DNA of 4,815 nucleotides from a virus (taxonomy: Duplodnaviria > Heunggongvirae > Uroviricota > Caudoviricetes), in IMG/VR virus record IMGVR_UViG_2698536571_000003; one strand, written 5' to 3'. Position 1 is the stretch's first letter, and each line of letters starts with the position of its first letter. The notes under the pieces are model-generated. The model was not told the origin of the DNA and ran no database searches. It saw only the letters and a program-made list of their open reading frames with translations. The position numbers and the translations under genes are program-made. Below, one piece after another: positions 1,366 through 4,815 of the stretch.

Positions 1366-1366
1366 G

Positions 1367-1681
1367 CAACTGACAACCAAAGAACTCTGCGGTCAGGGCC
1401 TGCTGTGCGTGACTGACCTGGCGGTACTTGAGCGGTGGTGCGTGGCCTATGAGTTCTGGCGACGTGCCGTGAAAAATATTGCCATACAGGGCAACACCAT
1501 CACCGGTGCAATGGGCGGCAGGGTCAAAAATCCGGAGCTGACCGCCAAAAAAGAACAGGAGTCCGAGATGAGCAGCACGGGGGCAATGCTCGGACTCGAC
1601 CCCAGCAGCCGCCAGCGTCTGATTGGCCTGGCGGGGCAGAAGAAAGCCACTAACCCGTTTCTGAAAATTATCGAATCATGA
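1367..1681 (+). CDS. terS: Terminase small subunit (P27/HK97 gp1-like), C-terminal 104 codons; 5' end lost in the N-run
   Basis: The frame is open from the first base after the gap to TGA 1679-1681 (...[35 protein letters not shown]...[13 protein letters not shown]). Stop overlaps the large-subunit start (ATGA at 1678-1681). Identity rests on position and coupling to the large subunit; the GTG at 1409 in the ORF track is an internal codon. Confidence 0.75.
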
Positions 1682-3411
1682 GCCGGAAATCTTACCCCAA
1701 CGTAAATGCTGCAAATCAGTATGCCCGGGATGTCGTGCGCGGAAAGATTGTTGCCTGCCAGTTTGTGATTCAGGCCTGCCAGCGCCATCTTGATGACCTG
1801 ATGGCGGAAAAAAGTAAGTCGTTTCGTTACCGCTTCGACAAGGACCTGGCTGAACGGGCCGCGAAATTTATTCAGCTGTTGCCGCACACCAAGGGGGAGT
1901 GGGCATTCAAACGGATGCCCATCACGCTGGAGCCGTGGCAGCTATTTGTGATCTGCTGTGCGTTTGGCTGGGTCAATAAAGGCACCCGGTTGCGCCGCTT
2001 CCGGGAGGTGTACACCGAAATCCCCCGTAAGAACGGCAAATCAGCAATCTCTGCCGGTGTTGCCCTGTATTGTTTTGCCTGTGATAACGAGTTTGGCGCG
2101 GAAGTGTATTCCGGTGCCACGACAGAGAAACAGGCGTGGGAAGTCTTTCGCCCGGCGCGACTGATGTGTAAACGCACACCCATGCTGACGGAAGCGTTCG
2201 GGATTGAGGTTAACGCCTCAAACATGAACCGTCCGGAGGATGGCGCGCGGTTTGAACCGCTGATCGGCAACCCAGGTGATGGTTCATCACCCCACTGTGC
2301 CGTGGTTGATGAATATCACGAGCATGCCACCGATGCGCTTTATACCACAATGCTTACCGGGATGGGGGCGCGACGTCAGCCACTGATGTGGGCCATCACC
2401 ACCGCCGGGTACAACATTGAGGGGCCGTGCTACGACAAGCGGCGGGAAGTCATCGAGATGCTCAACGGCTCGGTGCCTAACGATGAACTGTTCGGGATCA
2501 TCTATACCGTTGATGAAGGTGACGACTGGACCGGCCCGCAGGTGCTGGAAAAAGCCAATCCAAATATTGGCGTGTCGGTTTATCGCGAATTTTTGTTAAG
2601 TCAGCAGCAGCGTGCGAAAAATAACGCCCGTCTGGCAAACGTCTTTAAAACAAAACACCTCAATATCTGGGTGTCGGCGCGTTCGGCGTATTTCAACTTG
2701 GTGAGCTGGCAGAGCTGCGAGGATAAATCACTGACCCTTGAGCAGTTCGAGGGGCAGCCGTGCATTCTGGCCTTTGACCTGGCGCGTAAGCTGGATATGA
2801 ACAGCATGGCGCGACTTTATACCCGCGAGATTGACGGTAAAACGCATTACTACAGTGTGGCCCCGCGTTTCTGGGTACCGTATGACACGGTGTACAGCGT
2901 CGAGAAAAATGAAGATCGACGGACAGCCGAACGCTTTCAGAAATGGGTGGAAATGGGCGTTCTGACCGTTACCGATGGTGCGGAGGTGGATTATCGCTAC
3001 ATCCTCGAGGAGGCCAAAGCGGCGAACAAAATCAGCCCGGTCAGTGAGTCACCCATCGACCCCTTCGGGGCGACCGGGTTGTCACATGACCTTGCTGATG
3101 AAGACCTGAATCCCGTCACTATCGTCCAGAACTTCACCAATATGTCCGATCCGATGAAAGAGCTGGAAGCAGCGATTGAATCGGGACGTTTTCATCATGA
3201 CGGCAATCCCATCATGACCTGGTGTATCGGCAACGTGGTCGGCAAAAACATGCCGGGTAACGATGATGTGGTGAAACCCGTCAAAGAGCAGGCGGAAAAC
3301 AAAATCGATGGTGCAGTTGCGCTGATTATGGCGGTTGGCAGAGCCATGCTGTACGAGAAAGAAGACACGCTGTCTGACCACATTGAGTCCTACGGGATCC
3401 GCTCGCTTTAA
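1678..3411 (+). CDS. terL: Terminase large subunit (ATPase/nuclease), 577 aa
   Basis: ATG 1678 to TAA 3409-3411. Walker A-like PRKNGKS (about 2020-2045), Walker B-like CAVVDEYHE (about 2300-2325), and a C-terminal RNase H-like nuclease region with acidic residues ([21 protein letters not shown]). Confidence 0.95.
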
Positions 3412-3413
3412 CT

Positions 3414-3418
3414 GAGGT
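3414..3418 (+). promoter_or_regulatory. Shine-Dalgarno (GAGGT) for the small membrane ORF
   Basis: GAGGT lies 4 nt upstream of ATG 3423 in the 11-nt spacer after the terminase large subunit stop. Confidence 0.6.
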
Positions 3419-3422
3419 AATT

Positions 3423-3605
3423 ATGATCATGCTGATTCTCGCGCCTCTGGTGGGCGTGCTGGGTGCGCTTTTGCTGGCGTATGGTGCCTGGCTGATTTAT
3501 CCCCCGGCGGGTTTTGTTGTTGCCGGGGCGCTGTGCCTGTTCTGGTCGTGGCTGGTGGCGCGATATCTCGACCGTACACGGCAGTCTGTCGGCGGAGGTA
3601 AATAG
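3423..3605 (+). CDS. Small hypothetical membrane protein, 60 aa, two predicted transmembrane helices
   Basis: ATG 3423 with an upstream SD. Two hydrophobic helices ([26 protein letters not shown] / [16 protein letters not shown]) and a basic C-terminus; E. coli-like codon usage (CTG, GCG). Stop TAG 3603-3605 overlaps GTG 3605. No family recognised. Confidence 0.55.
3551..3558 (+). other. Chi site (5'-GCTGGTGG-3')
   Basis: Exact octamer on the + strand inside the small membrane ORF; this is the only exact occurrence I found on either strand. Confidence 0.8.
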
Positions 3606-4761
3606 TGTTCTTTTCGGGATTATTTCAACGAAAAAGCGATGTGCCGGTGACCACGCCAGCAGAACTGCTGATGCTATCGGGCTGTCATACGACACCTATA
3701 CCGGAAAGCGGATCAGTAGCCAGCGGGCCATGCGCCTGACGGCGGTCTATTCTTGCGTCAGGGTGCTGGCAGAGTCTGTTGGTATGCTGCCCTGCAGTCT
3801 CTACAAAATCAGCGGTACCCTGAAAACACGGGCGGTGGATGAACGACTGCATAAGTTGGTTTCGGCAAAACCTAATGGCTACATGACACCGCAGGAATTC
3901 TGGGAGCTGGTTATTGTCTGCCTGTGTCTACGGGGGAATTTTTACGCCTACAAGGTAAAGGCACTGGGAGAAGTGGTGGAGCTTCTTCCGATAGATCCGG
4001 GCTGTGTGGAACCGAAGCTGAACAGCCAGTGGCAGCCGGTTTATCAGGTGACGTTTCCGGATGGTTCCGTGGATGTGTTGACCCAGAATGAAATCTGGCA
4101 TGTGCGCACCCTGACGCTGGATGGACTTGTCGGGCTGAATCCCATTGCGTATGCGCGTGAGGCCATTTCACTGGCAGCGGCAACCGAGGAGCACGGTGCC
4201 AGGTTGTTTAGTAATGGTGCGGTGACATCCGGTGTGTTGCGTACGGAACAAAAGCTCACGCCGGATGCTTACGAGCGTCTGAAGAAAGATTTTGAGGAGT
4301 GTCACACGGGGCTTGGCAATGCTCACCGCCCGATGATTCTGGAAATGGGGCTGGACTGGAAGTCGATGGCGCTGAACGCCGAGGACAGTCAGTTCCTGGA
4401 AACCCGCAAGTTTCAGCTGGAAGAAATCTGTCGTCTGTTCCGGGTGCCGTTGCACATGGTGCAGAACACCGATCGCGCCACCTTCAACAATATCGAAGAG
4501 CTGGGGCTGGGATTTATCAACTATTCACTGGTGCCGTATCTGACCCGCATCGAACAGCGGATCAACACCGGACTGGTACGAAAAAGTAAGCAGGGCGTTT
4601 ATTACGCCAAATTTAACGCCGGGGCGTTACTGCGCGGGGATATGAAGTCCCGTTTTGAAGCCTACGCCACCGGGATCAACTGGGGAATTTACTCTTCCAA
4701 TGACTGCCGCGACCTGGAAGATATGAATCCGCGTCCCGGTGGTGTAATGCCGATCAGTTAA
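3605..4761 (+). CDS. Portal protein, HK97 family; 5' end uncertain because of an apparent -1 frame break between 3605 and 3736 (possible pseudogene or assembly indel; alternative start ATG 3730)
   Basis: Stop TAA 4759-4761 is firm. The portal-like frame carries motifs typical of HK97-family portals (RLTAVYSCVRVLAESVGMLP, WHVRTLTLDGLVGLNPIAYAREAISLAAATEEHGARLFSNGA, LEEICRLFRVPLHMV). That frame has no ATG/GTG/TTG with an SD between TTG 3520 and ATG 3730, whereas GTG 3605, preceded by GGAGG (3594-3598), opens a different frame that runs 44 codons to TGA 3737. Confidence 0.85.
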
Positions 4762-4815
4762 GGATCAGTTGACCGATCCAGTGGCTGTGTAAGAATCCGG
4801 AAACGCTCACTTGTT

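Follow-up and report, generated by a model that had tools for sequence, protein, structure and literature searches.

A predicted inner-membrane hairpin of the YmfR family, encoded between the terminase large subunit and portal genes of a defective prophage

A small membrane-protein gene between terL and portal

Here, we analyse a 4815-nucleotide stretch of tailed-phage DNA (Caudoviricetes; IMG/VR record IMGVR_UViG_2698536571_000003), called the window in what follows, in which a 60-codon open reading frame (ORF) at 3423-3605 lies between the genes for the terminase large subunit (terL, 1678-3411) and the portal protein (3605-4744), all three on the plus strand. We propose that this ORF is, almost certainly, a genuine member of the YmfR / PHROG 502 family located in the late operon, and that its product is a 60-residue inner-membrane hairpin with both termini in the cytoplasm and a periplasmic turn of 4-5 residues. 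The assignment draws on the list of ORFs, the RefSeq label of the matching gene, the match to PHROG 502, clusters of homologues, and ratios of nonsynonymous to synonymous substitution (dN/dS, or omega).

The gene begins with an ATG, 5 nt downstream of a Shine-Dalgarno (SD) sequence read directly from the DNA (GAGG, 3414-3417), and is separated by 11 nt from the terL stop codon (TAA, 3409-3411). At its other end, the stop codon (TAG, 3603-3605) shares its G with the GTG start of the portal gene (3605-3607), giving a 1-nt overlap, and the SD sequence of the portal gene (GGAGG, 3594-3598) lies within codons 58-59 of the small ORF. Intact relatives begin their portal gene at the same GTG; in phage SfII, for example, ymfR occupies 2362-2544 and the portal gene 2544-3785. 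The G+C content at third codon positions (GC3) is 0.67 for the small ORF and 0.65 for both terL and the portal gene. The marks of a well-formed gene listed in an earlier sequence-only reading of the window (SD sequence, ATG, and a stop overlapping the next start) are all present in the DNA, and GC3 resembles that of the neighbours.

A search of 5.8 billion proteins returned 166 clusters of homologues, almost all exactly 60 residues long and all from Enterobacterales, and an alignment of 32 of these homologues contains 13 invariant residues, each of which lies in or next to one of the two helices described below. Among diverged members, Nei-Gojobori omega over codons 1-47 is 0.07-0.29 at dS values of 0.8-1.9, and over the tail codons 48-60 it is about 0.4-2.9, which is near neutral. 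Compared with SfII, the four differences in the helix region are all synonymous. The dN of the small gene is 2-5 times that of terL and the portal gene, and yet the gene is clearly constrained. The combination of conserved length and purifying selection in the membrane-spanning core rules out a spurious ORF, an option which the sequence-only reading had entertained. The conserved Gly-Gly codons at the C-terminus coincide with the SD sequence of the portal gene, and similar G-rich motifs precede the portal start in relatives, so that this particular conservation is probably at the nucleotide level. Two further ORFs, called mechanically, overlap the gene (one on the minus strand at 3408-3695 and one on the plus strand from 3514 onwards, upstream of 3605). 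Both were rejected, since the pattern of substitutions by codon position fits only the frame that starts at 3423.

The product consists of two transmembrane (TM) helices and a short tail, as had been noticed from the sequence alone, and hydropathy and structure prediction agree on this point. The first helix, residues 2-25 (3426-3497), carries the invariant residues P8, G11, G14, G21 and W23. It is followed by a tight Y-P-P-A turn, residues 26-29 (3498-3509), which is predicted to be periplasmic and which the alignments place at the centre of the signature YGAW...PAG[FY]. The second helix, residues 30-47 (3510-3563), carries the invariant residues G30, G35, C38, L39, W41 and S42, and the basic cytoplasmic tail, residues 48-60 (3564-3602; charge +4/-1, with four basic residues), evolves near-neutrally except for its terminal GG. 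Hydrophobic stretches fall at residues 2-25 and about 29-47, and AlphaFold2, given the 32-sequence alignment, predicts helices at 2-25 and 27-57, joined by the YPPAG turn, at a mean predicted local distance difference test score of 73.9. Across 43 superfamily members (see below), lysine and arginine account for 41 of the 200 residues in N-terminal extensions, 69 of 415 in C-terminal tails, and 6 of 173 in the loop. Because basic residues crowd both termini and are scarce in the loop, we assign an N-in/C-in topology. Foldseek searches of PDB and BFVD returned only non-significant helical hairpins (best E 0.08), and a sequence search of PDB gave no match for the small protein. At the RNA level, the window contains no Rfam family, and there is no unusual RNA structure. 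A putative rho-independent terminator annotated within the SfII homologue is not supported, as the equivalent stretch of the window is no more stably folded than its shuffles (z -0.25).

Although no family could be assigned from the sequence alone, comparison now supplies one. The protein matches PHROG 502 (E 2.8e-28, residues 1-55; PHROG 7105 follows at E 0.022) and is 88-97% identical to clusters from Escherichia coli, where the RefSeq feature under the DNA match is "ymfR: protein YmfR", a gene of prophage e14. YmfR of the E. coli K-12 cryptic prophage e14, which corresponds to Sb3 of Salmonella phage ST64B and to the phiP27, SfII and SfI protein, is of the same family (88-100% identical), has the same 60-residue length and two-TM hairpin, and occupies the same slot. 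Nothing material distinguishes the copy in the window, except that it sits beside an inactivated portal gene. Hence, the feature belongs to a family that is already annotated, and the copy here is an ordinary member in a defective prophage. The DNA of the locus is present in 1,604 of 5,426 complete E. coli genomes.

In phage records, the homologues go under several names: Sb3 (ST64B), "putative integral membrane protein" (phiP27, SfII and SfI) and, in several recent INPHARED records (among them ON470584.1, ON470603.1, ON470580.1 and PQ793804.1), "head-tail joining protein W"; the gene is unannotated in SfIV (KC814930.1). The small protein has no significant match in Pfam, NCBIfam or PADLOC, nor does any of 43 diverse superfamily members match Pfam. 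The earlier impression that this is not recognisably a structural protein is upheld. In the portions of published work available to us, ymfR appears only in tables or deletion lists, and none of the papers that mention it is concerned with it by title or abstract; in the literature on small membrane genes between terminase and portal, we found no description of the family. In K-12, treatment of cells with the LP-600 conjugate, an inducer of the SOS response as well, is reported to induce the e14 ymfR gene along with the other genes of e14 (log2 fold change 4.5; PMC10012262).

Linkage to the portal gene and the wider superfamily

The position of the gene is highly conserved. Among the loci that a search with the YmfR alignment retrieved (19 from genomes and 80 from IMG/VR), the order terL-small gene-portal is found in all, wherever the contig or prophage reaches far enough, and 80 metagenomic loci retrieved with distant members have the same arrangement. 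In 24 non-redundant metagenomic loci, the upstream ORF is TerL in 24 of 24 and the downstream ORF is Phage_portal in 24 of 24, even as identity to the first sequence of the alignment falls to 17% for TerL and 23% for the portal. Using hidden Markov models (HMMs) built from these alignments, both neighbours were directly adjacent in 156 of the 176 loci fetched; many of these are near-duplicates, and it is the diverse subsets that carry weight. The layout extends to Marinobacter phage AS1 and to Azospirillum phage Cd, whose host is an alphaproteobacterium and in which the order is HNH-terS-terL-small gene-portal-protease-capsid, with the same 1-nt overlap. Of 49 non-redundant loci, 42 have the stop codon of the small gene overlapping the start of the portal gene, and on the terL side a spacer of 8-16 nt is usual.

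Several observations tie the gene to one neighbour in particular. At Serratia loci, terL is only 35-37% identical, the portal is about 72% identical, and YmfR is still present; in Shigella phage SfV, terL is 98% and the portal 28% identical, and a different subfamily of hairpin is carried. Over the 49 non-redundant loci, the correlation of distance matrices between hairpin and portal is r 0.74 (partial r 0.56 given terL), and the partial correlation between hairpin and terL, given the portal, is r 0.10. Extra genes occur between terL and the hairpin gene at about 11 loci and between the hairpin gene and the portal gene at only 2. These comparisons indicate that the hairpin gene is inherited with the type of portal and not with the type of terL, and that it is genetically part of the HK97-type head module. 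As to the inserted genes themselves, a single metagenomic lineage in IMG/VR (L117, L119, L120, L123, L129 and L134) has one of about 190-230 codons between terL and the hairpin gene, at about 2920-3500, and two loci (L146 and L154) have one of about 266 codons between the hairpin and portal genes.

The gene is common but accessory. We examined 16 proteobacterial phages from a "spread" tblastn sample of INPHARED (1,646 records with HK97-type portals), and in 5 of them a small two-TM ORF directly precedes the portal gene. The family HMM detects three of the five (Marinobacter AS1, Klebsiella Kp4880-2 and Vibrio K341) and not the other two (Vibrio H2 and Pseudomonas PAJU2). In PAJU2 (L275), the ORF has 72 codons (1149-1367) and precedes and overlaps the portal gene, but its upstream neighbour is a protease-capsid fusion and not terL; having been missed by the HMM, it would be an analogue at best. 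The remaining 11 of the 16, which have the same portal family, lack a small two-TM ORF before the portal gene, and in HK97 itself terL abuts the portal gene, overlapping it in like manner, with nothing between. The expectation stated in the sequence-only reading, that terL is followed directly by the portal gene in HK97-type modules, is thus correct for HK97 and incorrect for the large branch that carries a gene in this slot. When the HK97 portal was used to scan IMG/VR for negative controls, every locus retrieved was at least 96% identical, and all came from one clade.

The N-terminus of the portal was also considered as a partner. A motif M-x-GLFG or MFFxGLF, outside the Pfam domain, opens many HK97-type portals, those encoded downstream of the small gene included (loci L002-L020 and L103-L182). 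As a partner of the hairpin gene it was rejected, because it is also found in portals without the gene (Bcep176, 16-3 and Carrot), and there is no specific co-occurrence.

Is the gene then a moron riding the late operon, as the sequence-only reading had suggested? PHROGs assigns family 502 to its category "moron, auxiliary metabolic gene and host takeover", and the accessory character holds, as the absence from HK97 and from 11 of 16 relatives matches the moron trait of being present in some and missing from similar genomes. The rest of the suggestion does not fit: consensus scans, which are not proof of absence, found no sigma-70-like promoter site in 3000-3900 and only one terminator-like site, on the minus strand; the differing base composition of a moron is missing, with GC3 equal to that of the neighbours; and the slot is fixed across portals of down to about 23% identity. 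The missing promoter-like site, the unremarkable composition and the portal-linked inheritance together argue against a classical moron, and the gene behaves like a member of the head module that is integrated into the late operon.

By its profile, YmfR belongs to a much larger, uncurated superfamily of hairpins of 45-90 residues. When searched against 1.84 billion representatives, the family profile reached E<=1e-3 for 386 clusters formed at 50% identity. Almost all of these proteins have 45-90 residues, and they share the signature G-x2-G ... [SA]YGAW-x3-PAG[FY]-I-x-G; many members have a basic N-terminal extension. The full 43-sequence superfamily alignment is too diverse for the locus search, for which a 10-sequence subset was used. 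Five representatives (P0160, P0182, P0184, P0187 and P0267) are tandem duplications of 100-122 residues with two YGAW...PAG units and four TM helices per chain, and such natural duplications suggest that the hairpins act at least as dimers.

The hairpin of SfV (L001, U82619.2) is an unannotated 53-codon two-TM ORF (2289-2450) in the same slot, where it overlaps the terL stop (ATGA). It matches PHROG 7105 strongly (E 3e-22), PHROG 502 weakly (E 6e-6), and the superfamily HMM at E 1e-13, and is therefore a distant homologue. Together with Klebsiella phage Kp4880-2, it represents a PHROG 7105 type that resembles YmfR in size, two-TM hairpin and slot and differs from it in going with another portal lineage (28% identical), even though terL is 98% identical, and in having a degenerate YGAW/PAG signature. 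The annotated portal start of SfV (GTG 2392) lies inside the 53-codon ORF, and homology to other portals starts at GTG 2440; the SfV portal start has probably been annotated 48 nt too far upstream.

The surrounding prophage and related records

The two genes flanking ymfR are both clearly identified. The terL product matches the Pfam domains TerL_ATPase (E 8e-26) and TerL_nuclease (E 4e-33), and terL is 99% identical to that of SfII. The portal gene (Pfam Phage_portal, E 3e-107) is a pseudogene here, as comparison with SfII by tblastn and blastn makes plain: a 1-bp deletion between 3667 and 3668 shifts the frame, and homology to intact portals ends at 4744, which corresponds to residue 380 of 413. 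From 4745 to the end of the window at 4815 runs the end of an IS4 element that truncates the gene. This end matches annotated IS4 copies at 100% and occurs in up to 32 places per E. coli genome. With a frameshift and an insertion in the portal gene, the prophage is therefore defective. An intact small ORF in such a decaying prophage is not evidence of selection in the host, given a target of 183 bp.

Further upstream, all on the plus strand, are the end of a lysis cassette, with Rz (i-spanin, 264-740) and, embedded in it in another frame, a lipoprotein-like Rz1 ORF (496-678); an HNH endonuclease gene (783-1133), 3' of Rz/Rz1 and just 5' of the terminase genes; and the 3' part of a Terminase_4 small subunit gene (1409-1681). 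The succession of Rz/Rz1 and HNH before the terminase genes is an HK97 gp74-type arrangement. Where the cos region is expected, and across the 5' part of the small terminase gene, the window has a run of 174 N (1192-1365). Over 1366-4815, five IMG/VR contigs match the window at 100% identity, and they end inside the IS4 element. IMG/VR contigs L022-L026, otherwise 100% identical, have 242 bases at the place of the N run, which is therefore not length-preserving.

Some related records deserve comment. A Shigella flexneri genome (L013, CP182557.1) has two copies of the prophage region, and the ymfR copy of the second (about 4001-4179) carries a frameshift in its first half. Three records that give unrelated hosts as their source, namely OR844959.1 ("Enterococcus phage Efm 3-10", 1764 bp), a metagenome-assembled genome labelled "Bacillota bacterium" (L004) and Edwardsiella hoshinae (L006), have DNA or proteins about 96-99% identical to the E. 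coli/Shigella region and likely reflect contamination, mis-binning or recent transfer. The locus in Martelella alba (L019) is more distant (portal 78% and terL 62% identical).

Possible roles of the hairpin

In light of its lasting association with the portal gene, at which step of the phage cycle might the hairpin act? The reading we favour, tentatively and as a possibility well short of an expectation, is that it is a late, self-associating inner-membrane hairpin with a part in siting the packaging vertex, or the initiation of the portal ring or prohead, at the membrane. We favour a membrane-assembly role because the linkage to the portal is the most specific clue available. On this reading, the gene would be transcribed together with terL and the portal gene from the phage late promoter, and the hairpin would be inserted co-translationally into the inner membrane, where it probably self-associates through its conserved glycines. 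At the overlap of stop and start codons, terminating ribosomes would probably re-initiate on the portal gene, so that portal protein would be made beside the membrane-bound hairpin and in roughly matched amounts. The hairpin may then localise or organise the portal ring, the initiation of the prohead or the packaging vertex at the inner membrane, as a non-essential efficiency factor.

To our knowledge, T4 is the only well-known tailed phage in which a phage-encoded, membrane-associated factor acts on portal initiation. Its portal initiator, gp20, is membrane-bound and needs both gp40 and the host protein YidC (PMC9958956). The pairing of gp40, a head vertex assembly chaperone, with the membrane-bound gp20 initiator serves as a conceptual model only, and any likeness to YmfR is hypothetical: gp40 is a 114-residue acidic protein with no TM hairpin and is encoded far from gene 20. 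There is no detectable similarity between the two (hhalign probability 0.1%).

Besides the lack of any resemblance to gp40, several points weigh against a role in head assembly. The hairpin is not a general requirement for assembly, since HK97 and 11 of the 16 sampled relatives do without it. The conserved residues are intramembrane or in the periplasmic turn, and the cytoplasmic parts, a tail of 10-13 residues and the optional N-terminal extensions, are variable and near-neutral, so that no obvious conserved surface is offered to a cytoplasmic portal. This pattern of conservation fits an envelope-directed role, such as exclusion or the timing of lysis, equally well. Overlapping stop and start codons are routine in phage late operons, and terL and the portal gene of HK97 overlap alike; the overlap is the norm and therefore proves integration into the operon and not a specific functional link. 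Finally, co-inheritance with the portal could be no more than the result of recombination that favours a junction at the 3' end of terL, and the loci compared are not phylogenetically independent.

An envelope target could be served in two ways, neither of which we consider likely. In the first, the hairpin would be a membrane effector apart from assembly, conferring superinfection exclusion by blocking DNA entry, or some other benefit to the lysogen. This is rather improbable, though it has points in its favour: it agrees with the moron category of PHROG 502 and with the accessory distribution of the gene; exclusion is a frequent role of small phage proteins of the inner membrane (T4 Imm, for example); an intramembrane and periplasmic conserved part suits an envelope target; and the gene is intact in defective prophages, both beside the dead portal gene of the window and in e14-like loci (L003 and L005) with truncated terL and portal genes. 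Survival of a 183-bp ORF in decaying prophages is, however, expected by chance, and the S. flexneri copy mentioned above is frameshifted. The gene shows neither a promoter or terminator of its own nor an anomalous composition, and its slot is fixed down to about 23% portal identity and from alpha- to gammaproteobacterial phages, unlike the sporadic distribution and fast turnover of exclusion genes. The protein also has no match in PADLOC and no similarity to T4 Imm (hhalign probability 0.2%). The second way is lysis timing, by a holin-like or antiholin hairpin of class II type that would accumulate late and affect the integrity of the membrane or the triggering of the holin. Like S21 of phage 21, proteins of the class II holin and pinholin group are small and have two TM helices rich in glycine, with both termini in the cytoplasm and a basic tail at the C-terminus. 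YmfR appears to match them in these features and in presumed late-operon expression, and differs in having no family match, no place in the lysis cassette and no dual-start motif. At 0.1 mM IPTG, D-alanine was released by 65 of 392 membrane-protein clones, the ASKA clone of ymfR included; the authors suspect leakage or lysis from overexpression, and the release was non-specific and was lost in a second screen (PMC10299036). No holin family was matched in Pfam at E<=1 or in PHROGs, and a dual-start motif is not conserved, Met3 being specific to this subgroup. The gene is always beside the portal gene and never beside an endolysin; the lysis cassette is separate in the window (Rz/Rz1, 264-740), and SfII already possesses a full lysis cassette, made up of a class I holin, a lysin, Rz and Rz1. 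On balance, a part in lysis timing is doubtful.

Two further readings are less probable still. If the ORF were mainly a translational leader, termination-reinitiation would govern how fast or where the portal is translated, and little function would be left to the peptide beyond its insertion into the membrane. The frequent overlap with the portal start (42 of 49 loci), the portal SD sequence in the last codons, which explains the C-terminal GG, and the neutral evolution of the tail are all as such a leader would have them. The TM core, however, is constrained residue by residue, with 13 invariant positions in 32 members, a signature that persists across 386 clusters, and omega of 0.07-0.29, and HK97-type operons achieve coupling without an ORF of this kind, so that we hold a pure leader to be quite unlikely. 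There is next to no probability that the gene encodes a head-tail adaptor like lambda gpW (Ad1), or that it is a spurious ORF after all. The former notion has behind it the "protein W" labels in INPHARED and the position of lambda W between terminase A and portal B, where this 68-residue protein occupies the same slot and its gene overlaps both neighbours. Yet gpW is soluble and hydrophilic, YmfR has two TM helices, and the family profile shows no homology to it (hhalign probability 0.9%). A gpW-like identity is accordingly refuted at the sequence level, and the labels are positional mis-annotations.

Whichever of these roles applies, our findings bear on how such genomes are annotated. The gene is treated inconsistently, being missing from the annotation of SfV and SfIV, called "protein W" elsewhere and covered by no Pfam family, and in mosaic phage genomes it may serve as a clean marker of the point where the terminase module gives way to the head module. 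The lasting attachment of a superfamily of hairpins to the portal, from alpha- to gammaproteobacterial phages, is apparently undescribed and unexplained. Should the hairpin prove to act in exclusion or in the timing of lysis, its age and its fixed position would be unusual for a factor of that kind. A broader and more speculative proposition, to which we would give only a low probability, is that YmfR-type hairpins are widespread, previously unrecognised portal-coupled inner-membrane factors, in which a small ORF tethers translation of the head operon to the membrane. If so, the cytoplasmic membrane would be the site at which a large branch of HK97-type phages begins to assemble its portal or prohead, or to which it anchors the packaging vertex. 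This would extend to other phages a mode of assembly documented so far essentially for T4 alone, with its gp40/gp20/YidC system.

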